A model generated the notes under the pieces. That model worked only from the letters and a program-made list of their open reading frames with translations. It was not told the origin of the DNA and ran no database searches. The position numbers and the translations under genes were made by a program. From the IMG/VR virus record IMGVR_UViG_3300032007_001569: a DNA stretch of 49,823 bases; one strand, written 5' to 3'. The stretch is from a virus. Its lineage: Duplodnaviria > Heunggongvirae > Uroviricota > Caudoviricetes. Shown piece after piece: positions 50-16,169 of the stretch. How positions within the stretch are numbered: position 1 is the first letter of the stretch; every line of letters begins with the position of its first letter.

Positions 50-160
50 CCTGTTTTCAGAAATGCGGTTTCCCCGGCGACATAATTTAGCGGTGTTTCA
101 AAATGAAGGTTTTCTGGCGCGCATGTCAGAAAAAATGCGTATTTGAAAACGAAAAACCAT
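50..160. repeat. Intergenic degenerate 25-bp motif tract A
   Basis: gttttcagaaatgcggtttcccc; gtgtttcaaaatgaaggttttctgg; consensus GTTTTYRAAAAYGNNWWTTTYCTGG. Confidence 0.7.
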
Positions 161-168
161 CGGCATAG

Positions 169-192
169 AAAAAGGCGGGATCATTGCCCGCC
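169..192 (-). terminator. Intrinsic terminator
   Basis: GGCGGG/CCCGCC stem followed by a T-run on the minus strand, directly after the stop of ORF 193-615. Confidence 0.75.
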
Positions 193-615
193 TTACTTTG
201 AATGGATGGGAAGCGCCTCGCACCAATCCAGAAGATTCGCCAGCGCCTTTTCCTTTGCGGCGGCGTGTTCTTCCTCCGTGATGCCCGTTGGATAGGCACA
301 ATAAATCGCGTGCTTGCCCTTCATATAGCGATAGCCCAGCGGCAAATTGTCTATGATTTCAGGATAATTCGCCATGAAACAGATGTGTGTCCATGAGCCG
401 GGCATGTCGAAATGAGCTTCACAACAACCGGTGGTGACATAGCCCTTTTCATTCAGGATGCGCACTTGATCCTGAATGTGCTCATCGATGAAAATGAGCT
501 GCCAAGGTGGGAAATACTCGCATGTACACTGATTGAGCCGATGGAAGCACTTCGGACAAACGAAATTATTATACGCCTGTTTGTTCCTCCGCATGGGATG
601 CGCCGCCTTTCTCAA
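193..615 (-). CDS. Hypothetical protein with N-terminal CxxC and IDE..LN.KGY.T..CCEAH motif
   Basis: ORF track; start overlaps the upstream gene stop (ATGA). Confidence 0.75.
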   Translation of the reverse strand: MRKAAHPMRRNKQAYNNFVCPKCFHRLNQCTCEYFPPWQLIFIDEHIQDQVRILNEKGYVTTGCCEAHFDMPGSWTHICFMANYPEIIDNLPLGYRYMKGKHAIYCAYPTGITEEEHAAAKEKALANLLDWCEALPIHSK

Positions 616-1169
616 ATATTGTCTTCCATGAGCTGATCGAAATAGTCAAATATGTCATCGTCGCTGTCGTTGTAGAAGATGTTGTCATCCTCTCCCTCTT
701 CTTCTGACGCAAAATCATCCAGGTCGTCAACGATATTCCCCCATCGCGCATTATCCAGCGCGTCATAGAGATATTCTACATCAATTCCGTTTTCTTCGCA
801 ACCCTGCCGGATGATTTCAAAATAATATTCTTCTGGCTCCCGCAGAGAATTTCCGCGAATATCAGTCATGACATAGACAACTGCGTCGAAGGTCTCGCCG
901 GTTTCGTCCAGGGTGACAGGGATCGTCTTGCGGATATAATAGGCGGGATAACCCTCATAGCGGTCAAGACGCGGCCAATCTTCTGGTGCAATATCCCACA
1001 CCAGAACGGGCAGAACGTGCCCCTCAGACGGGACAATATCGGCATGATACTTGAAGACAATATCCCAATCTTTGATCTTTCCGGTTCCGATGCGCTTTGA
1101 ACGGGGACAACGATTCGCCATCTGTCCAATATTCATATTTGATCCATACGCGATATAATACATGCTCAT
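612..1169 (-). CDS. Gamma-glutamylcyclotransferase (AIG2-like) family protein
   Basis: YIAYGSNM, RCP, LDRYEGYP motifs; AAGGAG RBS; acidic tail. Confidence 0.85.
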   Translation of the reverse strand: MSMYYIAYGSNMNIGQMANRCPRSKRIGTGKIKDWDIVFKYHADIVPSEGHVLPVLVWDIAPEDWPRLDRYEGYPAYYIRKTIPVTLDETGETFDAVVYVMTDIRGNSLREPEEYYFEIIRQGCEENGIDVEYLYDALDNARWGNIVDDLDDFASEEEGEDDNIFYNDSDDDIFDYFDQLMEDNI

Positions 1170-1199
1170 TCTCCTTTCACGCTTGCCCTTTTCGCGTTC

Positions 1200-1228
1200 A
1201 GTATAACTCGGTTTTGCTACATTGTCAA
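1200..1228 (-). promoter_or_regulatory. Cassette promoter P1
   Basis: TTGACA-atgtagcaaaaCCGAGT-TATACT, 17-bp spacer. Confidence 0.9.
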
Positions 1229-1247
1229 CTACTGTTTGAAATTAAAT

Positions 1248-1508
1248 TCAGGCTCTTTTTACGGCCTTCCTCCATGAGAAATGCTTTCCATCCACATTGG
1301 CGGGCGTGGTGACAAACTCAAAGTCTGAAACCTGACGGAACAATGTAGACAAAATGCCAAGGATAGACGCCGCAGCGGTAGCGCTACACCGATAGGCTTC
1401 TCTGTCGTCGTCCTTCCAGTATGCGGCAGCAGCCGCGTTTTTGTTGTATTCTGAAATCAGCTCGTCAATTACCCGATGCGCGGGAATGGTTTGAGAATGA
1501 TTAACCAT
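1248..1508 (-). CDS. Hypothetical protein
   Basis: ORF with GGAGG RBS. Confidence 0.7.
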   Translation of the reverse strand: MVNHSQTIPAHRVIDELISEYNKNAAAAAYWKDDDREAYRCSATAAASILGILSTLFRQVSDFEFVTTPANVDGKHFSWRKAVKRA

Positions 1509-1520
1509 GTTGCCCCCTCC

Positions 1521-2363
1521 TTAAATAATATCCGGCGCGCTCCAGCGCTTGTTTTTGAAATACTTCCACTCGAATGTTCCGTTGGCGACGCGCGTTTCCA
1601 CGTTCTCCAAATCTTTGAGCGCCATCATCCAGCCGCGTAGCTTCTCCTTTTCCTGTTCAGTCTTGCCAAAGAAGAATGCCCAGCGGTCAATGTCGTGCTC
1701 GATCTGCTCCACAGACCATTCCAAATCAGTCAATTCTGACTGACGCTTCAACTCCGCTTCCTCCGCCTCCACAATAGCCTTTGCGCCCGCGTAGGTGTCG
1801 TGCGCGTCACGCCAGGGCAGAGATACAAAGGGCTGATAATACTCATTGTACTGCTTTACAATGCGATAGCCATAGCGGTTATCTATTTCCGAATTAAGCG
1901 TACAATGGTCGTTGTCTTGAACGTTGACCAAATAGCCATCCTTGTACAATTCCAAAATATTATCTGGATTTTCGACGCTCAGATTCTTCGGATTTTCAAT
2001 GCCATCATCCAAGAAAATGTTATTGCTTCCAGTCCATTGGGGCACAAGGTTTGTCTTCCATGACCAGCCTTTCGGCAGCTTGCGCCATTCCGACGCGGCG
2101 GGATAATCCTTGATGGGCACACCGTCGATCTTCCGGGTGTCCTTCGGCTCGATCATCTGGAGAATGATGCCGTCCGTGTAGTTTTCTACGACGATGCCAT
2201 ACAGCACGGTCTTGCGGCACTTCGTATACCAGGGCGTCCTGGCAAGCCCGGCAAAGTAAACCACGCTTCCCGGCGCATAAATGACGCGCGGACGGTTCAA
2301 ATAATCCTCCGAATGAAAATCAAATCGGTTTGAAATGGATGATTCCGGGTTACTGCGGGGCAT
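1521..2363 (-). CDS. Hypothetical protein (~280 aa)
   Basis: Long ORF; start refined to MPRSNP by a GGAG RBS. Confidence 0.75.
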   Translation of the reverse strand: MPRSNPESSISNRFDFHSEDYLNRPRVIYAPGSVVYFAGLARTPWYTKCRKTVLYGIVVENYTDGIILQMIEPKDTRKIDGVPIKDYPAASEWRKLPKGWSWKTNLVPQWTGSNNIFLDDGIENPKNLSVENPDNILELYKDGYLVNVQDNDHCTLNSEIDNRYGYRIVKQYNEYYQPFVSLPWRDAHDTYAGAKAIVEAEEAELKRQSELTDLEWSVEQIEHDIDRWAFFFGKTEQEKEKLRGWMMALKDLENVETRVANGTFEWKYFKNKRWSAPDII

Positions 2364-2559
2364 GATAATCACTCCAATCTTTCTTCGGTCGCTCATCGTA
2401 AATCAGGGTGTAGCCGTTCATGTACTGCGTGAAGCTCTCGCGCTGGCGCTTGTCGCACCAGTTGATGGTCTCCGTTACACCATCATTCATCCTCAAGTCC
2501 GCCATGACAGCATAGCCGACATCATAAATCCTGACAGCAATCACATACTTATCAAACAT
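2350..2559 (-). CDS. Hypothetical protein
   Basis: Start refined to MFDKYV with GGGAGG RBS. Confidence 0.65.
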   Translation of the reverse strand: MFDKYVIAVRIYDVGYAVMADLRMNDGVTETINWCDKRQRESFTQYMNGYTLIYDERPKKDWSDYHAPQ

Positions 2560-2746
2560 CAATTCCCCTCCCCTTATTGCGCGCGACAAACGTAGCGGCC
2601 AGCTCACATTCAAGTTCTTCAATCCTCCGCGTGGTCGCGCCCTGGCAAATCGTCAGGATTTCCAAGGCTTCATCGCGCGTCAAAGTGTCCTTCATGACGG
2701 CGCTGACAAAAGCGTCAATCATCTTCCGCTTGCACTCATAATCCAT
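2552..2746 (-). CDS. Hypothetical protein
   Basis: First ORF after promoter P2. Confidence 0.65.
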   Translation of the reverse strand: MDYECKRKMIDAFVSAVMKDTLTRDEALEILTICQGATTRRIEELECELAATFVARNKGRGIDV

Positions 2747-2796
2747 ATGCCTTCTTTCCTTTCTTTCCGCTCGTTGAATTTTCCTTTGATGGTGCT

Positions 2797-2825
2797 AGTA
2801 TAACTCGGCACTTCTTAATTGTCAA
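2797..2825 (-). promoter_or_regulatory. Cassette promoter P2
   Basis: TTGACA-attaagaagtgCCGAGT-TATACT. Confidence 0.9.
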
Positions 2826-2859
2826 TATCTTTTTGAAATCTTTTATAAATTTCTTTTCT

Positions 2860-2985
2860 TGCGTTTTTAACAATTCCATTTTTCTGGATCGGCCTTAAAA
2901 AAGATGTGTTTTCCAAAATGATGTTTTCCTGGCACACTGGATTCATAAACGACCTGTTTTCAAGAACGGGATTTTTCTGGCAAAC
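2860..2985. repeat. 25-bp motif tract B (3 copies)
   Basis: Copies start at 2863, 2908 and 2956. Confidence 0.8.
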
Positions 2986-3031
2986 GAAAAAGAACGCGCA
3001 GCCCCAGCAGGATTACGCATTCAATCAGCCG

Positions 3032-3319
3032 TCACGCGGCCATGCTTCGCATAAGCTCTTCGGGCATTTTCCCTTCCGCCTTATCCACCAGGAAACCGCC
3101 CAGCGAAAACAGCGACAGTTTATCGAACTTCCAGTCGTAATAGGCGCGAAGACCCACAGGCGGCATGTAAACGTCTTCTTCCGACAGGCTGTAGACATTG
3201 ACCTGATAGCTTGCTTTTTCCTCATAGGCGCGCCGCATTAACCGGCGAATGCCAAAGGCATTGAAAACCGCCGAATGAACTTTTCCGCTCTCCTTCCATC
3301 TCACCAGATACCTTTTCAC
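3032..3319 (-). CDS. Hypothetical protein
   Basis: GTG start with GGAGG RBS; overlapping gene chain. Confidence 0.65.
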   Translation of the reverse strand: MKRYLVRWKESGKVHSAVFNAFGIRRLMRRAYEEKASYQVNVYSLSEEDVYMPPVGLRAYYDWKFDKLSLFSLGGFLVDKAEGKMPEELMRSMAA

Positions 3320-3507
3320 GCTATCCCCTCCAATTTTTCCATGATGAATGCCGCGCGGCCTGTCTCGCTGGAATAGCGATCTGAAATCCTCCGCGCCTGA
3401 TTTTCCGAAAAGCTCATGCCCGCGCTGAAAGACTTTGCGGGCGTGAAATCCTCCGCCATGAGAAACACAAAACCATCTTCATCAAAGCCATAGACGCCGA
3501 ACATCAC
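3316..3507 (-). CDS. Hypothetical protein
   Basis: 4-bp overlaps with both neighbours. Confidence 0.65.
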   Translation of the reverse strand: MMFGVYGFDEDGFVFLMAEDFTPAKSFSAGMSFSENQARRISDRYSSETGRAAFIMEKLEGIA

Positions 3508-3788
3508 GCTTCAACCTCCCTCATATAAGCGTCATATTCTCCACGGCTCAAAAGACTAGACTCCTTATGGAAATTAATGTCGGTCAGGCGATACTCGATT
3601 TTTTCCATTGCGCGAATATCGTCCTTCTTGCGGGCGTTGGCGTGCTTTTTTCCAAGCTCGCGTAGCTCGTCGTAAGTGATACCCCATTCTTTCCGCGCGT
3701 TGAGACGGCTCATCTTTTCCGCGTCGCCGTAGGTCATGGCCAAGTGTCCGGGATAAACGTCGCTCTTGTTATAACTCTGATTGAACAT
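3504..3788 (-). CDS. Hypothetical protein
   Basis: ORF with AAGGAG RBS. Confidence 0.7.
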   Translation of the reverse strand: MFNQSYNKSDVYPGHLAMTYGDAEKMSRLNARKEWGITYDELRELGKKHANARKKDDIRAMEKIEYRLTDINFHKESSLLSRGEYDAYMREVEA

Positions 3789-3822
3789 GGTTTTACGCTC
3801 CTTTGCTCGCTATTCGTTTTGA

Positions 3823-4128
3823 TTAAAACTTCTTCGCCACAAGCGTCATTAACTCGCAGCCAGCCGTTAAAATGCTGTCGCCGGTCACGTTGACGACATA
3901 CAGCAAATCCGGCGCGTTTATGTCTACCTCGTCCCAAATGGTGAATACTTCTTCGCCGGGCAACAGACCATGATAACGGCGCTGGAAGTCGGTAAACCGG
4001 GCGATACTCTCATGGGTCAATACCTGATAGGTGACTACAATGCGCCGCCGCTGCTCTCTGTTGCCGCCATAAGAATGGATCATCGCTTCAATGTCGTCGG
4101 CGACACACTGCATATGAAACTCACGCAT
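3823..4128 (-). CDS. Hypothetical protein
   Basis: ORF with GGAGG RBS. Confidence 0.7.
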   Translation of the reverse strand: MREFHMQCVADDIEAMIHSYGGNREQRRRIVVTYQVLTHESIARFTDFQRRYHGLLPGEEVFTIWDEVDINAPDLLYVVNVTGDSILTAGCELMTLVAKKF

Positions 4129-4131
4129 TTG

Positions 4132-4275
4132 CTAATCCTCCTTCCACTGCGTGTAAACCTCGATGGACTCACCGCTCGCGCGGATATAGCGGGCGTTGGG
4201 AATGGCGGCGGCGATCTGCCGCGCCTGTTCGATCAGTGACAAGTCCGGGTCGCGCTTGATGAAAGTAATACTCAT
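4132..4275 (-). CDS. Small hypothetical protein (47 aa, MSITFIKRDPD...)
   Basis: Hand-translated, below the ORF-track cutoff; fills the operon gap and has a GAGG RBS. Confidence 0.55.
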   Translation of the reverse strand: MSITFIKRDPDLSLIEQARQIAAAIPNARYIRASGESIEVYTQWKED

Positions 4276-4292
4276 TTTGATTGCCTCGCTTC

Positions 4293-4538
4293 CTATTTAT
4301 ATTTCGTCCAAATTGTGATGCAATCATCCTTCACCGCGAAGAAATCAACCTTCAATTTCTTCATGTACTCAATAAACTCGGAATATCCTTCAAATACATC
4401 ATTGTGAACCTCATAGCTATCTTCAAATGATAGCAACCCTATGTCTGATTCATAGGTGTAATGTTTTGTGCAGTCCTGAATCTTAACCGTCTGGTTGTTA
4501 TTTAGTGCAATAGCCTTGAACATCTGATTAACTGTCAT
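4293..4538 (-). CDS. Hypothetical protein (AT-rich gene)
   Basis: ORF with GGAG RBS. Confidence 0.65.
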   Translation of the reverse strand: MTVNQMFKAIALNNNQTVKIQDCTKHYTYESDIGLLSFEDSYEVHNDVFEGYSEFIEYMKKLKVDFFAVKDDCITIWTKYK

Positions 4539-4604
4539 TGTCTCCGTCTCCTCTTTGTCATCAGGTGGGGCGGTTTAGCCGCCGCCCTTCGGCCTCTCTT
4601 CCTA

Positions 4605-5087
4605 TTAGAACGCCGCAGCCAATTCCACGCGGGCGTCCAGCTCGATGCGCTCGCAGCCGTACTTCATACGAATCTGATTGAGCGACTTCCTACCATGAGA
4701 AACCACGCTATCCTCGGGCGCGTGCCAGTACCACGCCTTTTTCTTGCTGGCGTAGTGATAACCAGCGGCCTTCAGCACTTCGCGGTGCTCGTAGGTATGG
4801 CCGGTGATCCAAATCCAGTTGCCCACCAGCTCGATCACAAGGCCCTTGCAGGTCGCCACGGCCTGAACCGCAGCCATGAACTCGGCGGGAACTTCCTTCG
4901 CGGCCTTCGCCTGTTCGGCCTGTTCGCCGTGAACGCGGATGAACTCGACGGCCTTTTCATACTGGTTGTTAATGGCCTTCATGGTCGCCTCGTCGCCGCC
5001 CAGGTCGGGATGGTTGGCCTTGACCAAGCGCTTGTACTCGACGCGAAGGGCCTGCATGGTTCGGATTCCCTCGAAGAAGTTTTTCAT
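4605..5087 (-). CDS. J-domain (DnaJ-like) protein
   Basis: YKRLVKANHPDLGGD..MKAINNQYE J-domain with HPD motif. Confidence 0.85.
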   Translation of the reverse strand: MKNFFEGIRTMQALRVEYKRLVKANHPDLGGDEATMKAINNQYEKAVEFIRVHGEQAEQAKAAKEVPAEFMAAVQAVATCKGLVIELVGNWIWITGHTYEHREVLKAAGYHYASKKKAWYWHAPEDSVVSHGRKSLNQIRMKYGCERIELDARVELAAAF

Positions 5088-5139
5088 GGTGTGCGCTCCT
5101 TTCAGCTCGTCGGCTTGTTGTTTCCCTTGATCTGGCTGT

Positions 5140-5168
5140 AGTATAACTCGGCCTTATTCCATTGTCAA
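5140..5168 (-). promoter_or_regulatory. Cassette promoter P3
   Basis: TTGACA-atggaataaggCCGAGT-TATACT; GAGTC box 32 bp upstream of -35. Confidence 0.9.
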
Positions 5169-5234
5169 TAGCTTTATGAAATTTTATTTGTAAAGAATCT
5201 GAGTCCATCCCGGCGCGTTTCCTCCTGGCGCACG

Positions 5235-5410
5235 GCCAGAAAATCCCCATTCTTAAAAACAATACTTCTCGGCAAAAACGGCGAAAATTGCCGAAACATA
5301 TTCCAGAAAATTCCCATTCTTAAAAACGAATCACAAATGTGAAGCGGCTTACTTCGGATTTGTTACGCCTGAAAACGCGCGTGTTTGAAAATCATATTTT
5401 TCTGGCTGGG
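5235..5410. repeat. 25-bp motif tract C (mixed orientation)
   Basis: Two reverse copies (ccagaaaatccccattcttaaaaac) and one forward copy. Confidence 0.75.
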
Positions 5411-5412
5411 CT

Positions 5413-5440
5413 GGAGGGGAAGTCTCGCGGCCTCCCCTCC
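5413..5440 (-). terminator. Terminator-like hairpin
   Basis: GGAGGGGA/TCCCCTCC stem after ORF 5450-5719; U-tract is weak. Confidence 0.5.
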
Positions 5441-5449
5441 TGTCAGCTC

Positions 5450-5719
5450 TTACGCGGCGCGGTCGATGATTTCCGCCATCATGCAGATTAACGTCGCCTT
5501 GTCTTCCGGCGTGTTCTCCCGCCAGGAAAAGTCATTCGCCAGCACCGCGAAACAGAAACTTTCCTCTCCGGTGTAGGGCTTTTCACGGGGCAGATACTTT
5601 GCCAGGATGATCTCTTGCGCGGTGTCATGCTCGTTCAGGTCGGTCAGAAAAGCGTCATTCTCCATCAGGTTGGCAATCTTCGCGGCGGTCTCCGCTTTGT
5701 ACTCCAGTCCGTTAAACAT
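5450..5719 (-). CDS. Hypothetical acidic protein
   Basis: ORF with GGAG RBS. Confidence 0.7.
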   Translation of the reverse strand: MFNGLEYKAETAAKIANLMENDAFLTDLNEHDTAQEIILAKYLPREKPYTGEESFCFAVLANDFSWRENTPEDKATLICMMAEIIDRAA

Positions 5720-5737
5720 GATCCTTTCTCCCTTCGC

Positions 5738-6487
5738 TTATTTGATCGTCTTTTTGTTCTCGCTGGTGAGCAGCTTTCCCGTATTGATTCCGGCCTCTTC
5801 ACACAATGCCGTCATGATCTTGACAGCTTGCGGCCATTCGTCCGGGTGAATGAAGTCAAGCAGCGGTCTTGCCTTGCCATTCGCGCGCGTCCTGCGGGAT
5901 TCTAGGTTGATATGTCCCTTATACAACAGTCGGTCATAAAACACTTTCCAGCCCGCGCCGGTCATGCCGCCGTACCTTTTGCCAGCATAGGCCCGCGCCA
6001 GGCGATTCAAAACCATGCGCGGCTCCCAAGTGTTCGCCTCGGCGGCTAAGGCGGCGTTTGTGCTCGTCAGCTCCTTGACGCGCGTCTGTTCGTTTACCAA
6101 GGCTTGCAGCAGCTCGATCACGCTTTCCGGCCTCGTGAGCGTTTCGGTGAGCTTGTCGGGCGTCATGTACGCGCCGTGCTTTCGGATGGATGGGATCACG
6201 TCGTGTACAATCCAGCGCTTAAAGGCTTTCGCCTCCGGCTTGCGGGAACCCAGCACCAAGGAATAAAGGCCAGGTTCGCTAACAATGATTAATTCTTGAT
6301 CTCCGCCAAGGGTGTGAATTAAATTCACTCCCTTTTCGTCGTCGTCCAATCGTTCGCACGCGCGGCCAGCTTGATTGATCTCCAACGCCCTGCAAACATC
6401 CACGGCCACAAACCACGGTTCGCCGTCTCTCTCCAACGTGCGGACACTTCCGAACGATGGATTTTCAAAGATTCTTAGCTCATCCAT
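5738..6487 (-). CDS. BRO-N domain phage antirepressor
   Basis: F.N..FG.VR....GEPWFVAVDVCRAL; VSEPGLYSLVLGSRKPEAKAFKRW...VIPSIRKHGAY. Confidence 0.9.
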   Translation of the reverse strand: MDELRIFENPSFGSVRTLERDGEPWFVAVDVCRALEINQAGRACERLDDDEKGVNLIHTLGGDQELIIVSEPGLYSLVLGSRKPEAKAFKRWIVHDVIPSIRKHGAYMTPDKLTETLTRPESVIELLQALVNEQTRVKELTSTNAALAAEANTWEPRMVLNRLARAYAGKRYGGMTGAGWKVFYDRLLYKGHINLESRRTRANGKARPLLDFIHPDEWPQAVKIMTALCEEAGINTGKLLTSENKKTIK

Positions 6488-6535
6488 TTTTCAATCCCTC
6501 CATTTGTTGGTCGGTTTCCTTTGGTTCATGGCCGA

Positions 6536-6564
6536 ATTGTACTTCAATTTTTGAAGTATGTCAA
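6536..6564 (-). promoter_or_regulatory. Antirepressor promoter whose spacer is a palindromic operator
   Basis: TTGACA-17-TACAAT with TACTTCAA-aa-TTGAAGTA between and overlapping the hexamers. Confidence 0.8.
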
Positions 6565-6614
6565 CCCGGTAATATGCAACAATATTTGAAGCATATTTTA
6601 GGCAAAATATGCAC

Positions 6615-6643
6615 TTGCTTTTGAATCATATCTATAGTATAAT
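6615..6643 (+). promoter_or_regulatory. Promoter of the HTH gene
   Basis: TTGCTT-17-TATAAT; adjacent GCATATTTT-aggc-AAAATATGC palindrome. Confidence 0.7.
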
Positions 6644-6667
6644 ACAGTCAGAAGGAGGTGATGAAAA

Positions 6668-6889
6668 ATGCCGATTAAATACAAAATTGATGTGATTGCT
6701 GCGCTAAAGGATGCCGGTTATACGTCCTACAAAATCAGAAAAGAAGGTGTAATCAATCAAATAGCGCTGCAAAAGCTCCGGGAAGGCAAACTCATTTCAT
6801 GGGAACAGCTCGACAGGATTTGCGTGATCCTCCACTGTCAGCCCGGCGATCTGGTTGAACACATCGACGATCTACCGGAACGGCCTTAA
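6668..6889 (+). CDS. Cro/C1-type helix-turn-helix regulator
   Basis: 73 aa, LQKLREGKLISWEQLDRICVILHCQPGDLVE; GGAGG RBS. Confidence 0.85.
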   Translation: MPIKYKIDVIAALKDAGYTSYKIRKEGVINQIALQKLREGKLISWEQLDRICVILHCQPGDLVEHIDDLPERP

Positions 6890-6919
6890 CTGGCCGTTTC
6901 TTTTTGCGCCCTCAGTTTC

Positions 6920-7085: not shown

Positions 7086-7090
7086 AGGGC

Positions 7091-7117
7091 AAAAGAAAAC
7101 CGCCCCAGGAAGGGCGG
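7091..7117 (-). terminator. Intrinsic terminator
   Basis: CCGCCC/GGGCGG stem plus T-rich run on the minus strand. Confidence 0.7.
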
Positions 7118-7134
7118 CTAATTGATTCGTATGA

Positions 7135-7762: not shown

Positions 7763-7765
7763 GGT

Positions 7766-9307: not shown

Positions 9308-9322
9308 TTTCAAATCCTCCTT

Positions 9323-9655
9323 TCAGCACCATGCGATTAACTTGTTCAGGTTGAACCGGTTGGAAGATTCCAGCGTCTTTTCCTCCAGCGTCTTGATAAC
9401 TGCCCATTTACCGGCGTTCTTCTCGCGCTCGAAGGTCTCCGCGATGTACTCGCCGGTGCCGTCGTAGTGCTTCATGTAGTAAACCCGGCGATATGTGGCG
9501 GTCGTTTCGGTCTCGCCGATCTTCTTCATGAACGCGGGATAGTCGTAACCATAAACAGGATTGTAAAGATAATTGGCAACGTCGAATTTGTAGCCGTTCT
9601 CGGTGGTGATCTTCAGCAGCTTGTTGATATACACCGGTTTAACATTGCGTGTCAT
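9323..9655 (-). CDS. Hypothetical protein
   Basis: First ORF after P5; AAGGAG RBS. Confidence 0.7.
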   Translation of the reverse strand: MTRNVKPVYINKLLKITTENGYKFDVANYLYNPVYGYDYPAFMKKIGETETTATYRRVYYMKHYDGTGEYIAETFEREKNAGKWAVIKTLEEKTLESSNRFNLNKLIAWC

Positions 9656-9708
9656 TGTTAGCGCTCCTTTCGGCTGGTCGGTTTGTTCCGTTCCCTTGAT
9701 CTGGCTGT

Positions 9709-9737
9709 AGTGTAACTCGGTTTTTCTCCATTGTCAA
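9709..9737 (-). promoter_or_regulatory. Cassette promoter P5
   Basis: TTGACA-atggagaaaaaCCGAGT-TACACT; GAGTC box at 33 bp. Confidence 0.9.
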
Positions 9738-9799
9738 CACCTTTTTGAAATTTTCTTTTGTAAAGAATGTGAGTCCTTCGCCCCTCATTCCAGGGATCA

Positions 9800-9965
9800 A
9801 TAATTCAATATTTTCAGAAATTGAAAAAAGCTGGAGGCAGTGCGTCAACTTTTCAGCGTATTTGAAAACGGGCGTTTCTGAATCACATTTCGGCTATTTT
9901 TGAAAACGTTTGTTTTCTGGTTCTGCAGACTTTTTCCGTTTTTGAAAATGCGGATTTTCTGGAAT
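9800..9965. repeat. 25-bp motif tract F
   Basis: atttttgaaaacgtttgttttctgg; gtttttgaaaatgcggattttctgg. Confidence 0.8.
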
Positions 9966-9969
9966 GGAC

Positions 9970-9999
9970 AAAAGAAAAGCCCGACTTTTCGCCGGGCTT
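9970..9999 (-). terminator. Intrinsic terminator
   Basis: AAGCCCG/CGGGCTT stem plus T-run. Confidence 0.8.
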
Positions 10000-10004
10000 G
10001 TCGG

Positions 10005-10187
10005 TCAATACAATGCGTTAAACGCCTCGATGATTTCCGCTCGGCGTGGTTCCAGGTGCTCAGGAATGCGGAAATACATGTCGCCGGTTCTGCCAAGATA
10101 AACATCAAAATCCGCTTGCTCTCCGTCCTTCAACTCCACACGCATGTAAATGTGATTCCCGTAGGTGTGCTCGGTGATTTTCCTCAT
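10005..10187 (-). CDS. Hypothetical protein
   Basis: Start refined to MRKITE with GGAGG RBS. Confidence 0.65.
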   Translation of the reverse strand: MRKITEHTYGNHIYMRVELKDGEQADFDVYLGRTGDMYFRIPEHLEPRRAEIIEAFNALY

Positions 10188-10189
10188 TG

Positions 10190-10393
10190 TCAAGCCCTCC
10201 CATACTCCATAATTTCCCACAGGTCGCCGACTCCCTCGATCTTGATTCCCAGGCTCTCAGCCGCAGCGCGCGCGGCCTCTTCGCTCTTGTAGCTCTTGCC
10301 GTCTGTCGGATTTGTGCCGGTGGCGATAACCTCAACGATACCATAGCGGCGGCGATTGCCATAGCCGTTAATCATGATGGCGTACTTTTTCAT
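10190..10393 (-). CDS. Hypothetical protein
   Basis: First ORF after P6; GGAGG RBS. Confidence 0.65.
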   Translation of the reverse strand: MKKYAIMINGYGNRRRYGIVEVIATGTNPTDGKSYKSEEAARAAAESLGIKIEGVGDLWEIMEYGRA

Positions 10394-10425
10394 GTGTCTC
10401 GGCCTCCTTCGTTTGATCTGGTTTG

Positions 10426-10454
10426 ATTGTAACTCGGCTTTTTTCTTTTGTCAA
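10426..10454 (-). promoter_or_regulatory. Cassette promoter P6
   Basis: TTGACA-aaagaaaaaagCCGAGT-TACAAT. Confidence 0.9.
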
Positions 10455-10499
10455 TAGGTTTTTGAAATTTATTTTTGTGATTTTTTTTGCGCCATTGTT

Positions 10500-10670
10500 T
10501 CCCTGTTTTCCGAAATGAGCTTTTCCTGGCGTGAGGCCCAGGAGACATGTGTGTTTGAAAATGCGCGTTTTCTGGTTGCCCCATGCCAATTTTCCGCAAT
10601 TTTGAAAAACGATCCTTTGTTGTCGTTGCCGGACAAAAAGCGCGCGTGTTTAGAAACGGGAATTTCCTGG
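10500..10670. repeat. 25-bp motif tract G
   Basis: gttttccgaaatgagcttttcctgg; gtgtttgaaaatgcgcgttttctgg; gtgtttagaaacgggaatttcctgg. Confidence 0.85.
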
Positions 10671-10676
10671 ACGGAC

Positions 10677-10705
10677 AAAAAAAGACGCAGCGCCCAGCCG
10701 CGTCT
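10677..10705 (-). terminator. Intrinsic terminator
   Basis: GACGC/GCGTC stem plus T7 run on the minus strand. Confidence 0.65.
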
Positions 10706-10738
10706 TAACTTTGTTTCCGGTCTATAACTTTGTTTGTG

Positions 10739-10999
10739 TTATGCTACATCTTCCAGCGCGCCCATACTTTCCAGCGCGAACATAAACGCAGCCGCTTCTC
10801 GGTCGCTTGAAATAATGTCGCCGCGAAATTTGACAAACTCGCCGACAAACGCGGCGAATTTTTCGTTTTTACAGGCTTCATCAAACGCCTTGACAGCTTC
10901 ATCATAACCGGCGACTCGGTCGTAGTTGTCATAAAGAAATTCGTATTCCTGATTGAATTTCTCGGCGAACTCCTGGATATTGACGTTAATAGCTTTCAT
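10739..10999 (-). CDS. Small acidic hypothetical protein
   Basis: ORF with GGAGG RBS. Confidence 0.7.
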   Translation of the reverse strand: MKAINVNIQEFAEKFNQEYEFLYDNYDRVAGYDEAVKAFDEACKNEKFAAFVGEFVKFRGDIISSDREAAAFMFALESMGALEDVA

Positions 11000-11012
11000 T
11001 GTTGCGCCCTCC

Positions 11013-11150
11013 TTATTTCATGATCGCGTCATTTTGCGCTTGCATGTCCTGCCAAATCTCGTTGGCCTCTTTGTCTAAATCCTTATAGGCGATTTCCCCG
11101 CGCCTATACAGGTCGATGGCAAGATTCACCGCGTCAGCATAAGTCCACAT
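11013..11150 (-). CDS. Small hypothetical protein (45 aa, MWTYADAVNL...)
   Basis: Hand-translated; AAGGAG RBS; first ORF after P7. Confidence 0.6.
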   Translation of the reverse strand: MWTYADAVNLAIDLYRRGEIAYKDLDKEANEIWQDMQAQNDAIMK

Positions 11151-11202
11151 GGTCAACGCTCCTTTCGGTCGCCGGTCGTTGTTGTTCCCTGTTGATGGCT
11201 GT

Positions 11203-11231
11203 AGTGTAACTCGGTTTACTTAACTTGTCAA
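11203..11231 (-). promoter_or_regulatory. Cassette promoter P7
   Basis: TTGACA-agttaagtaaaCCGAGT-TACACT; GAGTC box at 33 bp. Confidence 0.9.
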
Positions 11232-11299
11232 TAGCTATTTGAAATTTTGTTATGTTAATTCGATGAGTCATCCCCTGGTTCCTGGCGCGATCAGGAAGC

Positions 11300-11520
11300 G
11301 CACGTTTTCAGAAATGGCGTTTTTCTGGTTCTGCCTTAAACCGGACGCGCCAATAATTTCTCGTTGTTAAAACGTCCTTTTATTGAAAAAGTAATGCCCT
11401 ATAATAGGGGAAATATGAATGGCGGATTTTGCCCCAGCAGCCAAGAGTCGCACGTTTTTCAAAATTCGGTTTTCCTGGAGGCGAAGACTCCGCGTTTTTG
11501 AATATGGGATTTTTCTGCGC
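11300..11520. repeat. 25-bp motif tract H
   Basis: gttttcagaaatggcgtttttctgg and variants. Confidence 0.75.
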
Positions 11521-11524
11521 GGAC

Positions 11525-11551
11525 AAAAAGAAAAGCCGGATTGCTCCGGCT
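11525..11551 (-). terminator. Intrinsic terminator
   Basis: AGCCGGA/TCCGGCT stem plus T-run. Confidence 0.75.
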
Positions 11552-11757
11552 CAGTAAATCCAAATTTCATGCTGATAGGTTTCCCCGTCCAGGTCGATAT
11601 TTATGATCCAATCTCCTTTTTCGTCTTCCGGCTCTACATACTCATTTAACCAAATTTCAGATGTTGTTATTGCGTGGTTGATCCCTCCATGCCAACCAAT
11701 AGCCCAGGCGGACACCAGCGCGGCGACGATCAGTAAAGCGGCGGCAGCTCTTTTCAT
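11551..11757 (-). CDS. Small secreted or membrane-anchored protein
   Basis: MKRAAAALLIVAALVSAWAIGW signal/TM segment; GGAGG RBS. Confidence 0.7.
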   Translation of the reverse strand: MKRAAAALLIVAALVSAWAIGWHGGINHAITTSEIWLNEYVEPEDEKGDWIINIDLDGETYQHEIWIY

Positions 11758-11771
11758 TGTTTTATCCTCCC

Positions 11772-12047
11772 TTAATCCATATAGTTTTCTTGACGCTCCA
11801 AGATTCGGCCCTCCCAGTAGTCGGCCTCGGCGTTAAAGGGGCGACGTTCCAGGGGCGCGACGCGCAGCAGCTTGATACCATCCACCAGCAAGACGCCATT
11901 GTCAATCGTCCAGGCGTGGCGCGTGGGCGGCGTCTGATTCTTCCGGCAATAGTCCATGATCCCGTTGTATACATCCATCACATTAACCGGTGAATTAAAG
12001 GGAATTTCCATCTTCTCAATGATTCTTTCAATGTCTCGGCGTGCCAT
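11772..12047 (-). CDS. Hypothetical protein
   Basis: First ORF after P8; GGAGG RBS. Confidence 0.7.
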   Translation of the reverse strand: MARRDIERIIEKMEIPFNSPVNVMDVYNGIMDYCRKNQTPPTRHAWTIDNGVLLVDGIKLLRVAPLERRPFNAEADYWEGRILERQENYMD

Positions 12048-12078
12048 TGTGTTTTCCTCCCTCGCTTGATCTGTTTGA

Positions 12079-12107
12079 ATTGTAACTCGGTTTAATCAGC
12101 TTGTCAA
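12079..12107 (-). promoter_or_regulatory. Cassette promoter P8
   Basis: TTGACA-agctgattaaaCCGAGT-TACAAT. Confidence 0.9.
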
Positions 12108-12159
12108 TACCTTTTTGAAATTTTTCTTGAATTATTTATCTCTCTTCTTTCGTGCCAGG

Positions 12160-12420
12160 GATTGAACATTTTCCGAAACACGGTTTTTCCATCGGCATTT
12201 ACACAAATTTCCGCAGTTTTTCAATATTGCGGAATTTTGTAAAAGTGTCCGCAGTTTTTCCGGTTTTGCGGATGATTTTCCAAAGCCGGGCGCACAACTT
12301 TTCCGCGTTTTGAAATACGGGAATTTTCTGGATCGCCTCGCCAATTTTTCTTGATTTTGAAAAACGCAGACTTTCCGGCACCAGGCTCGGCGCGTTTTCC
12401 AATACGCAAATTTTCTGACG
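12160..12420. repeat. 25-bp motif tract I
   Basis: gttttgaaatacgggaattttctgg; gttttccaatacgcaaattttctga. Confidence 0.75.
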
Positions 12421-12425
12421 CGCAC

Positions 12426-12450
12426 AAAAAAGGCGGGCACGCGGCCCGCG
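12426..12450 (-). terminator. Intrinsic terminator
   Basis: GCGGGC/GCCCGC stem plus T6 run. Confidence 0.7.
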
Positions 12451-12459
12451 CTTTTTCCT

Positions 12460-12654
12460 CTACTCTTCGGTGTTTATGATCTCGCTAATCTCAATGGGCG
12501 TTTCCCTCAGAACGTCATGATTCAGCTTTTCCGCGTTCACCATGGCCATTGCTTCGCGCACTGTTTCCGCCTCGAATGATCTGTTAATGATGTTTCCTGT
12601 CGGTCTCAGCGTTTCCGGGTTTCGCTTGAAACATATTGTTTTAATAATATACAC
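12460..12654 (-). CDS. Hypothetical protein
   Basis: GTG start with GGAG RBS. Confidence 0.6.
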   Translation of the reverse strand: MYIIKTICFKRNPETLRPTGNIINRSFEAETVREAMAMVNAEKLNHDVLRETPIEISEIINTEE

Positions 12655-12669
12655 TCTTATTCACTCCGA

Positions 12670-13065
12670 TCAATCAATATAGCAGTTAATCACGTTGACA
12701 TTGTTTGCCTTGCACTTTTCCACAAGCTCGAGCCGCGTGTTGTAGCGCTCAATATCTCCGGCAAAAGCTCCGGCCAGGTCTTCACGTTCCGCCAGTCGTT
12801 TATAATAATCCATCGTTCGCAGGTCGTTAAAGTATATAATTTTTCCGTCGCAGATAATAACGCGGTTCATGGTTCCGTCGATTGTGCAGCCCCACAAACC
12901 AGCCGCGCGAACAGTCCTAGAATAGTCAATTTGTCTGTTTGGTTGCAGGTCGCAGAATTTCCAGGCGTTGCGGATTATTCCGCAAGTTTTCCCGTCGTCG
13001 TCTCGAACGGTGATTGAAGTTTTCCCGATCTTGACATGCTTTCCTTCAGCTCCGAAAATATCCAT
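12670..13065 (-). CDS. Hypothetical protein
   Basis: ORF with AAGGAG RBS. Confidence 0.7.
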   Translation of the reverse strand: MDIFGAEGKHVKIGKTSITVRDDDGKTCGIIRNAWKFCDLQPNRQIDYSRTVRAAGLWGCTIDGTMNRVIICDGKIIYFNDLRTMDYYKRLAEREDLAGAFAGDIERYNTRLELVEKCKANNVNVINCYID

Positions 13066-13078
13066 TGCGGTTTCTCCT

Positions 13079-13408
13079 TTACCTGTAGTCGCCGTCGTTC
13101 ATTTCTTCCGCCATCGCTTCACATTCTCCGCGCCAGGGGCAGCAGCCGCAGCCGGTTTCGTGCATCCCTTCCAGCGCAATGTGCAAATCACTCCAGCCGC
13201 TATAAAGGTCGTAGTCACGATTCACCGCGCGGGCGAATTTCTCCATCATTTCCGGCGTAACATCTCCGGTGTTGATTCCCGGCATTGTGAGTCCGACAAC
13301 CTCGCCTTCGCAGATTGCCAGCGCATAATCTCCGCTGTCGTCGGTATAGGGCCTGCACCAGCTCAGATTTTCCCCGTCGTGATTCTCCATGTACTCCAGA
13401 TACTTCAT
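13079..13408 (-). CDS. Acidic hypothetical protein with C-terminal CGCCPWRGEC cluster
   Basis: Start refined to MKYLEY with GGAGG RBS. Confidence 0.7.
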   Translation of the reverse strand: MKYLEYMENHDGENLSWCRPYTDDSGDYALAICEGEVVGLTMPGINTGDVTPEMMEKFARAVNRDYDLYSGWSDLHIALEGMHETGCGCCPWRGECEAMAEEMNDGDYR

Positions 13409-13456
13409 TTTCTCCGCGCCTCCGATCAATTCAAATTTTCCTTTGGGATTGACTGA

Positions 13457-13485
13457 AGTGTAACTCGGTTTATTTTTCTTGTCAA
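13457..13485 (-). promoter_or_regulatory. Cassette promoter P9
   Basis: TTGACA-agaaaaataaaCCGAGT-TACACT; GAGTC box at 33 bp. Confidence 0.9.
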
Positions 13486-13539
13486 TAGATTTTTGCAATT
13501 ATCCTTTGTAAAGATTCCGAGTCCTATTCGGCAGAATTT

Positions 13540-14080
13540 CCGGCAGAATTTCCCGCGCCAGGTTATCCATATTTTCTAATATCGCTTTTTCCTGCCAGGC
13601 GTGACAGTCTTCCGGCGTTTTCCAATATCGGCTTTTCCTGTTTCCGGTGCCAGAATTTCCATGTATTGCAAAACGATTCTTTCCGGCGATCCAGATTATC
13701 CGCGTATTTGAAAATGACTTTTTCCCGCGCGCGTCACGCCAGATTTTCCCGTTATTGAAAAACAATAATTTCCTGCGGATGATCGCCAGGAATGAAACGT
13801 TTTTGAAAATGGGTTTTTCCTGTCGGCGCGCCTCCAGAATTTCCATGTTTTGAAAAACGCATTTCTTCCGGCAGCGCGGCCAGGATGAAACGCGCGTCAT
13901 TTCTTCCGGTCAAAAAGACATTTTCCATTATTGGGATTTTCCCGCATATGTTTTTCAATTTTTCCCGGTTTTTGAAAATTTCCATTCCGGCGCTTCAGAA
14001 TTTCCGTGTATTCAAAAACGCCATTTCTTCCACGCATGATGCCAGATTTTCCCGATTTTCCAAAACGGAATTTTCCTGAC
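13540..14080. repeat. Longest 25-bp motif tract J (~540 bp)
   Basis: Repeating ccagaWtttcc..tWttgaaaaacg..Wttttcc units of about 40-48 bp. Confidence 0.85.
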
Positions 14081-14085
14081 AGGCA

Positions 14086-14113
14086 AAAAGAAAAGGCCGG
14101 GTTTTTCCCGGCC
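14086..14113 (-). terminator. Intrinsic terminator
   Basis: GGCCGGG/CCCGGCC stem plus T-run. Confidence 0.8.
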
Positions 14114-14126
14114 AGGTTTTCCTCGG

Positions 14127-14462
14127 TCATTCGTCCTTGTATTCCGCGTCTACGAAAACGATGTTTTTTTCCTCGGATTCAAGCATAATGCTTTCCTGAT
14201 TGAGCGCGGCGCGAAGCTCTCGAACCAGGGGCAGGATCTCAGCGCGCGTCACGCCAGCAACGTTAAACCGGATTGAAGGCTCACAGATTCGCGTGCCGTC
14301 CATGTGCTGATAGATGCCGTAGATGCCCTCGGTCTCCAGCGTGGCGCAGAAGTGATGCCGGTTAATGGCGTCAATCACGGTTTCGATGTAGTAGCTTTTG
14401 TCGTGCTCCTGCTTGTGTGTGTCCTGATCGAACAGGCCAACAGTGATAATGTGGTTCATCAT
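14127..14462 (-). CDS. Hypothetical protein, possibly SAM-lyase/PII-like (DUF3574-like) fold
   Basis: GIY....G....EPSIR...L...LNQESIML pattern; GAGGAG RBS. Confidence is for the gene; the fold is a guess. Confidence 0.65.
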   Translation of the reverse strand: MMNHIITVGLFDQDTHKQEHDKSYYIETVIDAINRHHFCATLETEGIYGIYQHMDGTRICEPSIRFNVAGVTRAEILPLVRELRAALNQESIMLESEEKNIVFVDAEYKDE

Positions 14463-14499
14463 GGTATTTCGCTCCTCTCGTTTCTCTCGATCTGTCTGG

Positions 14500-14528
14500 A
14501 TTGTAACTCGGTCTAGCTCGATTGTCAA
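14500..14528 (-). promoter_or_regulatory. Cassette promoter P10
   Basis: TTGACA-atcgagctagaCCGAGT-TACAAT; GAGTC box at 33 bp. Confidence 0.9.
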
Positions 14529-14634
14529 CAGGTTTTAGAAAATTTATTTCGTTAAGAATTTGAGTCGGTCTGTCATGCCAGGATTCAAGCGTTTTTGAAA
14601 ACCGGGATTTTTTGGCCGGAAGCACGGCGGGGGA

Positions 14635-15468
14635 TTAGATCCCCGCGTACTTCTTGAAGATTTTCACGATCTTCTCGGCGGCAACCTGCGCTTTGTGCAG
14701 CCGGTAGTCTCGGATCGTCGGATAGCGCCGGGCGTCTTTCGGCTCATCGTTGAAGTGCTCAACGAAGTTATTAACGACGGCCTCGGTTATCGCCTTGCAG
14801 CAGCGCACAGCGTTCATATACTGGTCAGCGTTTACGAATTTGACAAGCCTAAACTCCAGCGTGTTGTTGTGCTGTACGTTGATGAAATTGACGTGTTCGG
14901 TGGCGTAGGTTTCCATGTTAATCGGGGAGGCGTAGTAGGTAAAGCCGCGTCCGAACAGGCGCTCGGTGGCTTCCGGGTTCCGCTCCATTGCCTCGGACAG
15001 TGGGACGAATAGCGAGTTATAAAAGCGCCTGATGTAACCGATTGTCTCGGCGTTAATCATGTTTTTATGGCCGATGTGTGTATGTGTGCCGCATTCATCG
15101 CCGATTTTCAGCTCTCCAGCGTCAATCAAGCGGCCAAAAGTGACGGCGTGTTTGGTCAATGCGTTCATGCCCTGATAGATGGGGCTTTTGTACTCCACAT
15201 TAACCGTACAGTCAGAGGTGGGCAGGTATCCGTCCAGCAGGATCTCGGCGCGCGCCTTCTCGGTGGAAAAGCTGGTCTCCAGCTCCACGCCATAGGTGAA
15301 CGGGTTCACCTTCTCGGTGCCATGGCGGAAGTCGTTCTCGGTGGAATAACCCAACAGCCTATTGGCGTGAAAATCGCACATATACACGGCGCGCTCACCA
15401 CGACGGGCGGCGGTGGTCTTCACGGTTCCCATGTTCAGGCAGTTTTTGCAAGCGCAACGGATCATCAT
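14635..15468 (-). CDS. Putative amidoligase (COOH-NH2 ligase, Amidoligase_2-like)
   Basis: FTYGVELET, SDCTV..EYKSP, CGTHTHIG, TLEFRL motifs; N-terminal Cys cluster. Confidence 0.8.
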   Translation of the reverse strand: MMIRCACKNCLNMGTVKTTAARRGERAVYMCDFHANRLLGYSTENDFRHGTEKVNPFTYGVELETSFSTEKARAEILLDGYLPTSDCTVNVEYKSPIYQGMNALTKHAVTFGRLIDAGELKIGDECGTHTHIGHKNMINAETIGYIRRFYNSLFVPLSEAMERNPEATERLFGRGFTYYASPINMETYATEHVNFINVQHNNTLEFRLVKFVNADQYMNAVRCCKAITEAVVNNFVEHFNDEPKDARRYPTIRDYRLHKAQVAAEKIVKIFKKYAGI

Positions 15469-15535
15469 TTTCAGGCCCTCCATTCATTTTGTCGGTTTGG
15501 CTCGGCGCTCATCGCCGTAACCGGTTTATGGCTGT

Positions 15536-15564
15536 ATCTTAACTCGGCGACGCGCCATTGTCAA
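15536..15564 (-). promoter_or_regulatory. Cassette promoter P11
   Basis: TTGACA-atggcgcgtcgCCGAGT-TAAGAT. Confidence 0.85.
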
Positions 15565-15739
15565 CAGGTTTTTGCCAGATTTTTTCGATTTTACAAAACC
15601 TTTACAATTCGGTTCCTGGTGGGCCTGGACTGTCACGGGCGGATTTTTTCGCCTATAATAGTAGATATTCCCTCGGCAGCTTGCGCCTTTTTGCGCGATA
15701 TATGGAAGGGATTTTTGCGCCGAGTTTAATCAATGGCGC

Positions 15740-15850
15740 ACAACAGGACGACAGGACACAAAAAGCGCCGACAACAGGACGACAGGAAAACAGGACAGCA
15801 GGACGACAGCAGGGCAGGACGACAGCGCGCGCCGACAGGACGACGGAAAC
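15740..15850. repeat. Degenerate CAGGACGA short tandem repeats
   Basis: acaacaggacgacaggac occurs twice; caggacga recurs about 5 times with caggaa/caggac variants. Confidence 0.75.
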
Positions 15851-16169
15851 CGGAAGCGGAATTATGTTTCATGACGTGAAATATTGTCAATGTGGACGAA
15901 AACAGGGAAAAAGCGCGAAAAAACGAGGAAAAAAGACGTTTTTTGAGAATTTGCAGGATAAAATGGGAAAAATGCAGGAAATCTTGCAGGATTGAAACAG
16001 CAGGATCAGAATTATCGTTTTTCGATATGAGCAGGGACGACAGCAACAAAAAACCGTTTTCAAAAATCGTGAAAAATTGGATCACGTTTTTCAAAACGCC
16101 ATTTTTTTGTAGTGTTTAGCTGTATCATGTGATACTACTCAAGTCCATATTATGTACTATTATGGACAT

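Follow-up and report, generated by a model that had tools for sequence, protein, structure and literature searches.

Arrays of a palindromic repeat between the early gene cassettes of a cattle gut phage: candidate operator-like sites and recombination joints

Iterated operator or centromere sites that a single small dimeric protein fills cooperatively, and through which it controls many transcription units, are exemplified by the omega sites of pSM19035, sopC of F, and the KorB sites of RK2. Anti-CRISPR-associated (Aca) repressors are helix-turn-helix proteins whose sites are one or two inverted repeats inside a promoter. The gp71 repressor of phage L5 binds many sites, the stoperators and operators of the cluster A mycobacteriophages, and blocks both initiation and elongation (PMC9283540, PMC6550527). 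Promoter-early stem-loop (PeSL) cassettes of T4-type phages are another described arrangement (PMC2839356, PMC4122927). Here, we describe arrays of a repeated DNA unit of ~40 bp in a 49,823-nt stretch of an uncultured Caudoviricetes phage (IMG/VR record IMGVR_UViG_3300032007_001569), referred to below as the window. Window DNA is present in bovine gut metagenome runs, and the phage is a cattle gut phage with a genome of >130 kb. The left 16 kb of the window is a block of small leftward genes that we refer to as the early block, while the right-hand two thirds carry rightward genes, including those for an RNA polymerase, a beta-CASP nuclease, and an HU-family protein. We give roughly even chances to the reading that the repeat tracts would act as operator-like arrays at which a putative sequence-specific, face-of-helix-dependent binding protein controls or insulates the early cassettes, the same repeats also serving as recombination joints.

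Anatomy, position, and spacing of the repeat unit

The original prediction, made from the letters of the window, was that a degenerate 25-bp motif recurs in some 30 to 40 copies in the intergenic gaps of the left block. When up to 3 mismatches were allowed, this 25-mer matched 34 times, compared to 0.01 matches expected from 100 dinucleotide shuffles, and 33 of the 34 matches lay within positions 126 to 16110. An iterated 29-nt weight matrix gave 91 strand-hits of at least 12 bits, compared to 1.85 in Markov shuffles; the arrays are strongly nonrandom. Merging the matrix hits yielded 51 to 54 units, nearly all within 50 to 16112 and all intergenic, laid out as 12 tracts of 2 to 11 units each plus single units. 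The repeats are thus real, although the earlier count was too low, with about 50 copies found. The statement that copies are missing beyond ~16.1 kb stands save for two isolated hits of at least 18 bits, at 22025 and 35305.

Matrix hits on the two strands were paired at an offset of 13 nt, which places a 14-bp palindrome, CGTTTTYRAAAAYG, at the center of the unit. This core is accompanied by a WTTTTCTGG arm and often by a mirrored CAG arm opposite; the CTG- or CAG-bearing arms lie ~17 bp to either side of the core, beyond an A/T tract. The full unit of ~40 bp (range, 27 to 40 bp) is an imperfect palindrome that is two-fold symmetric in its G/C letters. We centered 51 units and oriented them by the stronger arm. 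The aligned positions read C(-7) G(-6) TTTT Y, the center, R AAAA Y(+6) G(+7), and three loosely G-rich positions, and the arm reads W(+11) TTTT C(+16) T(+17) G(+18) G(+19) C(+20); in many units, the opposite side is the mirror image, with C(-18), then A, then R, and an A/T tract of either polarity. Conservation was highest at G(+18) (50 of the 51 units), followed by C(+16) (41 units), G(-6) (40 units), and the mirrored C(-18) (39 units). The physics of A/T tracts cannot account for such position-by-position conservation of G/C letters. The predicted 25-mer corresponds to the core plus the better arm; the asymmetric 25-mer alone does not describe the palindromic unit.

In the direction of transcription, a cassette consists of a promoter, one to four small genes, a terminator, an array, and the following promoter. 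There are 12 conserved leftward promoters of the sigma-A type on the minus strand within 1200-15564 (TTGACAA, 10 nt, CCGAGT, then TAYAMT). They resemble each other over ~86 bp of surrounding DNA, and each has a core-like TTTCAAAAAG element beside the -35, at about -37 to -47. Seven minus-strand intrinsic terminators were recognizable, and seven tracts start 5 to 10 bp after such a terminator. Most tracts (seven of the 12 tallied) end 43 to 91 bp upstream of a conserved minus-strand promoter, as measured from the center of the proximal unit to the -35, and in eight tracts the distance from the distal unit to the terminator T-run is nearly constant. This map bears out the earlier placement of the tracts in noncoding DNA between a terminator and the next promoter. 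Open reading frames (ORFs) called across the largest tract (13499-13900 and others) are repeat artifacts, as this tract is shorter in a natural variant by 122 bp, a length not divisible by three.

At the left edge of the window, three units (centers at 58, 98, and 144) occupy 38-165, between the terminator at 194-172 and a promoter that is cut by the edge. The tract at 2848-2982 has three units at exactly the predicted spacings of 45 and 48 bp (2868-2961) and lies 43 bp upstream of the -35 of the promoter at 2825-2797 (promoter coordinates run from the -35 to the -10). Upstream of the promoter at 5168-5140, the tract at 5234-5407 contains three units spaced 67 and 65 bp apart; two are inverted, in agreement with the inverted copies noted earlier in this tract (5236-5405). 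Predicted spacings were likewise exact in two four-unit tracts: one at 6910-7086 (47, 40, and 48 bp; 6930-7065), directly after the terminator at 7119-7098, and one at 8171-8352 (47, 46, and 47 bp; 8191-8331), upstream of the promoter at 8112-8084. Four units are also found at 9795-9964, between the terminator at 9999-9977 and the promoter at 9737-9709, and at 10490-10672 (spacings of 46, 48, and 47 bp), between the terminator at 10706-10682 and the promoter at 10454-10426. Between the terminator at 11552-11533 and the promoter at 11231-11203, the region 11289-11520 holds one unit (11309) and a pair (11459 and 11499), and five or six units at 12153-12420 separate the terminator at 12449-12433 from the promoter at 12107-12079. 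The largest tract, with 11 units mostly 46 to 48 bp apart, spans 13556-14081, between the terminator at 14113-14095 and the promoter at 13485-13457. A strongly two-armed single unit at 14576-14617 lies just after the amidoligase gene, upstream of the promoter at 14528-14500; another single unit, at 15573-15614, abuts the -35 of the amidoligase promoter (15564-15536); and two units 30 bp apart (16041-16112) mark the right-hand start of the early block. The two other promoters are at 1228-1200 and 6564-6536. The latter is the leftward promoter nearest to the tract at 6910-7086, at ~360 bp, and the gap at 6564-6900 contains a possible rightward 73-amino-acid ORF (6668-6889) with its own plus-strand terminator (6877-6900).

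Spacing and orientation were assessed over 273 neighbor distances from eight phages. The distances peaked at 29 to 30 bp (39 distances), 40 to 41 bp (23), 46 to 48 bp (92), 57 to 58 bp (16), and 67 to 68 bp (8). These peaks form two ladders with steps of ~10.3 bp, one at 30 and 40.5 bp and the other at 47, 57.5, and 68 bp, and the 7 bp by which the ladders are offset reflect whether or not the second arm is present. One-turn steps of this kind fit neighboring bound proteins that need a set rotational relation to one another, and this helical-turn spacing is the strongest indirect sign that a protein binds. The stronger arm was directed away from the downstream promoter 164 times, compared to 81 times toward it.

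Several known types of repeat were considered and rejected. The units are just 60 to 80% alike and the gaps between their conserved parts are 7 to 20 bp, with no ~30-bp unique spacers, unlike a CRISPR array; replication iterons were dropped because there are too many loci; and cre boxes and ComK boxes, compared by eye with their consensus sequences, are off in spacing by at least 1 base. A role as a DNA-entry or packaging signal, suggested earlier, is not supported, and in the two relatives with direct terminal repeats the arrays lie mid-genome.

Module exchange and recombination joints

Relatives of the phage were represented by 41 IMG/VR contigs that encode a related RNA polymerase. Arrays recur in at least 12 other phage contigs, at 25 to 47% GC. 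Seven of the 41 polymerase contigs (L025, L040, L042/L043, L048, L050, and L057) have 28 to 66 matrix hits each beside the polymerase gene, while the others have none. In the complete genomes G006 and G010, tracts lie 21 to 143 bp upstream of host-type promoters, and the order terminator-array-promoter recurs in the window, G006, G010, and a divergent locus, L137. Nearly all of the units of G009 form one 1.8-kb array of 41 units (70611-72416; L073:10611-12416), mostly 46 to 47 bp apart and in both orientations, which directly follows the amidoligase gene and ends ~220 bp before the next promoter.

L137 and four other loci (L128, L133, L135, and L136) were found via a co-inherited Zn-ribbon protein that is described below. 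Variant arms around the same core occur in L128, L133, L135, L137, G006 to G010, and three contigs of a genome collection. The unit of L135 is identical in form to that of the window, and in L133, CATTTTTCAAAATG cores recur at 47, 39, and 30 bp. Each terminator of L137 is directly followed by a pair of GTTTTGAAAAAC elements 36 to 37 bp apart, and all gaps of L128 (25% GC) contain GTTTTTAACAACTG together with its inverse. A few single units occur in L136, including one immediately upstream of the operon encoding the Zn-ribbon protein and a GGCT-like enzyme. Among the matches listed in a pattern scan of the genome collection, most of which were single chance matches, at least three loci hold arrays (L220, L237, and L248); their bin labels (Bacteroidales, Ruminococcus, and Gastranaerophilales) conflict, and we do not name a host from them. 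An exact motif-pattern search of IMG/VR gave no match, and a promoter-pattern search of IMG/VR gave 20 single chance matches, none with arrays. The spacer CCGAGT, invariant in the window promoters, is present in none of the 41 relatives' loci, whose early promoters have the -35 and the upstream A/T element in common with those of the window.

In a tree of the polymerase, array-bearing contigs are scattered among array-less ones, a pattern explained by exchange of the entire early block as a module. One exchange is visible directly. Contigs L048, which has arrays, and L061, which has none, share ~96% identity to the right of L048 position 3115, but their sequences to the left of it have no relationship to each other (L048:1-3115 versus L061:1-7570). 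Position 3115 is the exact end of the last array; this break at the array edge indicates that the early block was swapped whole. Arrays and cargo therefore travel as one module, as immunity and regulatory modules do. The gene content of array-type blocks is almost wholly variable, with three genes recurring. The early blocks of L136 and L137 encode ArdA, an AcrIC5-like protein, DpnD/PcfM, and a weak match to SAM-lyase, and such anti-defense genes in related blocks suggest that the window cassettes are also mostly counter-defense cargo.

Natural variation within the left block was examined in strain variants, contigs from other cattle gut metagenomes that align at 90 to 99% identity; the following are among the 40 differences listed of 1459. 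Genes are replaced between fixed borders at 4302-4568 and 7775-8046, and a gene is deleted at 7128-7515. Tract lengths differ by 32, 60, and 122 bp, the last being a loss in the largest tract. One joint, present in three runs, fuses two promoters (11214 to 9731), another fuses units that belong to separate tracts (11324 to 5380), and two more lie inside units or promoters (13886 to 14009 and 11308 to 11369). Across the variants, joints fall at promoters, units, and terminators, as expected of PeSL-like mobile regulatory cassettes. Repetition of the units and promoters makes them the sites of cassette gain, loss, and shuffling. Cassette shuffling at this repeated regulatory DNA is a demonstrated consequence of the repeats, and it need not be the reason that the units are kept.

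The right-hand genes provided some additional observations. The polymerase gene of the window (23784-26567, rightward) encodes a YonO-like two-barrel RNA polymerase (PF05183), and the closest cultured phages by this protein are Clostridium phage c-st and Enterocloster phages, at ~39% identity; a nucleotide search of GenBank phages gave no match. In eight relatives (L036, L039, L040, L046, L047, L048, L051, and L061), the match to this gene spans 3.0 to 4.2 kb rather than 2.8 kb, owing to an insertion of ~0.3 to 1.3 kb inside it that may be an intron or intein. A GC-rich (53%) insert at 46281-49410 of the window carries an rve/Mu-type transposase gene (47199-48623) and resembles a small transposon within the phage. 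A search with the 290-amino-acid protein encoded at 17806 gave no relatives.

A putative binding protein and rival explanations

From the anatomy, position, conservation, and spacing of the units, we infer that a protein binds them; its identity and the direction of its effect are likewise proposals. The units would serve in tandem as docking sites for a single sequence-specific DNA-binding protein, which would probably be a dimer or higher oligomer and most likely be encoded within the exchangeable early block. A protein filling these sites would be present on all early transcription units simultaneously. Most likely, such a protein would shut off the strong early promoters in a coordinated way, or insulate them, once the first minutes of infection have passed; alternatively, it might silence them in a carrier state. 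The earlier view of the tracts as protein-binding arrays is supported in its general form by the G/C positions, dyad symmetry, helical-turn ladders, and conservation in ~12 contigs, although the particular agents that it named (HU, CodY, and phased A/T tracts) did not hold up, as discussed below.

Comparison of array blocks with array-less relatives revealed only three genes that are common to the former and missing from the latter. The first encodes a 140-amino-acid Zn-ribbon protein of no known family (193-615, minus strand; CxxC, 6 residues, CxC, then a CCExH motif), the second an AIG2/GGCT-like cyclotransferase (612-1169, minus strand) whose gene has a 4-nt overlap with the start of the first, and the third an Amidoligase_2 enzyme (PF12224; 14635-15483, minus strand). 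The Zn-ribbon and AIG2/GGCT genes were present in all eight array blocks with a complete region and the amidoligase gene in seven of nine array blocks, whereas none of the three was found in the 17 larger array-less records searched, a comparison that leaves out nine short fragments (5 to 22% complete). Two further ORFs of G006 from this profile are a dUTPase and a 108-amino-acid protein that is missing from G008. Amidoligase and AIG2 genes are known as neighbors in phages and Firmicutes (PMC11318856, citing Iyer et al. 2009). The array blocks were found to have no helix-turn-helix gene, or any other known DNA-binding gene, in common.

The Zn-ribbon protein is the sole candidate binder that emerges from this phyletic pattern, and we put it forward only tentatively, as an association within a module whose members possibly share descent. 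It has no match in Pfam or PHROG, no Foldseek match in the PDB at an E value of ≤0.001, and no match among GenBank phages. Its AlphaFold clusters contain unnamed proteins and one Imm1-named entry only, and the best VIA-align result (Z of 7.8, to TYW3-like proteins) is at the tool's noise level. Its 65 homologues are nearly all unnamed and metagenomic. A complex prediction for the GGCT enzyme with the Zn-ribbon protein scored 0.00; it was run without controls and says nothing either way. Should the Zn-ribbon protein bind the arrays, which is conceivable though doubtful, it would be a new small DNA-binding regulator that occupies as many as 41 sites in tandem, switches an entire exchangeable block of early and anti-defense cassettes, and defines a new DNA-binding family. 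It would act either by itself or in concert with the two other co-inherited products, the amidoligase and the AIG2/GGCT enzyme, which could modify the protein or the DNA.

Several observations weigh against the operator-like reading and this candidate. The Zn-ribbon protein has no recognizable DNA-binding fold, and the translational coupling of its gene to an enzyme gene suggests that it may be an enzyme partner instead. A distant homologue with two to three Zn-ribbon domains in tandem comes from a contig of 58% GC that lacks arrays, where its gene neighbors that of an RNase T-like exonuclease. Co-inheritance of the three genes may merely mirror the common descent of one module lineage. Finally, G009 has its 41 units in a single array rather than before each promoter, which suits a titration or structural role equally well.

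That same array in G009 would suit titration of a conserved host protein, such as a global regulator of Clostridia or the C-terminal domain of the RNA polymerase alpha subunit, for which the arrays would be a host-state sensor, decoy, or polymerase antenna. We consider such a host partner possible, though on the improbable side. The core is kept across phages of 25 to 47% GC, as if its partner hardly changes, and the core-like A/T element beside the -35 of every early promoter, array-less relatives included, resembles an UP element. However, the alpha C-terminal domain reads A/T minor grooves, which leaves the near-invariant CTG, CAG, and CG positions unexplained; the arrays reach 500 to 1800 bp from the promoter, beyond a bound polymerase; and close relatives with presumably similar hosts lack arrays entirely. 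The half-sites ATTTTC and GAAAAT equal those of CodY, whose box, AATTTTCWGAAAATT, some copies had been thought to resemble. The best match per unit had 3 mismatches to this 15-mer in 1 unit, 4 in 5 units, 5 in 11, 6 in 16, 7 in 16, and 8 in 2, never falling below 3 and most commonly reaching 6 or 7, and the unit core is an even 14-bp palindrome, one base short of the CodY 15-mer. CodY-like sites with up to 3 mismatches number 5 in the left block versus 1 in the right block. It is somewhat less likely still that the repeats have no dedicated binder and spread by slippage or unequal exchange, persisting as homology for cassette shuffling like a counterpart of PeSL or of REP/BIME elements. Units per tract vary from 1 to 41, the variants described above differ in length within tracts and are joined between tracts and between promoters, and the repeats remain while the gene content of the blocks is nearly all different among relatives. 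Yet neutral or selfish repeats would not hold single G/C positions at 98% while their spacers drift, nor would they hold helical-turn spacing in eight phages, arm orientation relative to the promoter, or the core at both 25% and 47% GC, and a transposase of the REP-associated type was not seen in the block.

Binding by the phage's own HU-family protein, which would coat the arrays in the manner of TF1 of SPO1 at early promoters and bend each ~40-bp unit, is improbable. Its gene (31329-31616, rightward) is a clear member of the Bac_DNA_binding family (E value of 3.4e-20), and the 38- to 40-bp units, with A/T tracts at about ±3.5 and ±12.5, resemble an HU/IHF footprint. However, this gene lies in the conserved right-hand block, outside the exchanged module; three genomes without arrays (G002, G003, and G004) encode homologues, while the array-bearing G010 yielded none, and the suggestion that HU is the specific binder is not supported. 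The least probable explanation is that DNA shape alone, as curved upstream DNA that stimulates promoters, or RNA hairpins in read-through transcripts account for the arrays. Curved A-tract DNA upstream of early promoters is known from Bacillus phages, and the units are partly palindromic. The phased A/T tracts of the original prediction were nevertheless absent. AA/TT power at 10.0 to 10.8 bp was not raised relative to shuffles (z of -0.6 to -0.1, about -0.5), and the periods that stood out (47, 15.7, and 11.75 bp) are harmonics of 47 bp. Lacking this helical periodicity, the tracts are not classical curved DNA, and since 47 bp is 4.5 turns, the bends of successive units would oppose and cancel one another. 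As for RNA, folding of the largest tract gave a z of -1.9, which leans toward structure, with no per-unit hairpins; many units have their arms in direct and not inverted orientation and hence form no hairpins of their own, the tracts are situated after terminators, and Rfam covariance models gave no match at the gathering score on either strand of 1-17800.

A repeated site marks each early cassette in these uncultured phages of 130 to 170 kb from gut and rumen Clostridia, providing a direct experimental handle on their gene control. The arrays mark the borders of exchangeable accessory cassettes, many of which are probably directed against host defense. Helical-turn ladders and a depth of up to 41 units are unusual for phage operators and suggest a filament-like nucleoprotein structure.

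Comparison with repeated-site systems

In several respects, the arrays resemble tandem sites of plasmids and the operators of anti-defense genes. Like the omega, sopC, and KorB sites, they are tandem short sites upstream of several promoters of one replicon. Those sites are 7-bp heptads, 43-bp sopC repeats at one locus, or single 13-bp palindromes, whereas here there are at least 12 tracts, and no ParA/ParB-like or ribbon-helix-helix gene was found in the early block. The setting of Aca repressors is similar in that an early accessory or anti-defense block has very strong promoters that probably need prompt shut-off, and related blocks here contain ArdA, AcrIC5-like, and SAM-lyase-like genes. 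In contrast to Aca sites, the arrays lie upstream of the promoter, and the blocks have no helix-turn-helix gene in common.

Like the regions of PeSL cassettes, the early block is hyperplastic, and its small accessory genes are flanked by a terminator and a strong early promoter of the host type. In both systems, repeated regulatory sequences are the recombination points at which genes are shuffled, as seen here in the joints at promoters and units of natural variants. A PeSL consists of a promoter and a stem-loop only, with no third element, whereas the arrays are an extra element with its own conserved sequence and spacing.

The closest analogue of the proposed mechanism is the many-site repressor system of the cluster A mycobacteriophages. 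Stoperators of L5 are many copies of a short site in intergenic spaces, oriented relative to transcription, and the 51 to 54 intergenic units with a mostly promoter-distal stronger arm (164 versus 81) share these traits. In L5, variation in the sites is matched by variation in the repressor, both being parts of one immunity module. The L5 sites differ in being asymmetric single 13-mers, bound by a monomer, on both genome arms. The units described here are 27 to 40 bp long and largely symmetric, stand 2 to 41 deep at helical-turn spacing, and are confined to the early block. Array blocks also have no known DNA-binding gene in common, and the likeness to L5 does not imply lysogeny. The arrays would thus compare most closely with a stoperator system in which each site is larger, more symmetric, and stacked in tandem.

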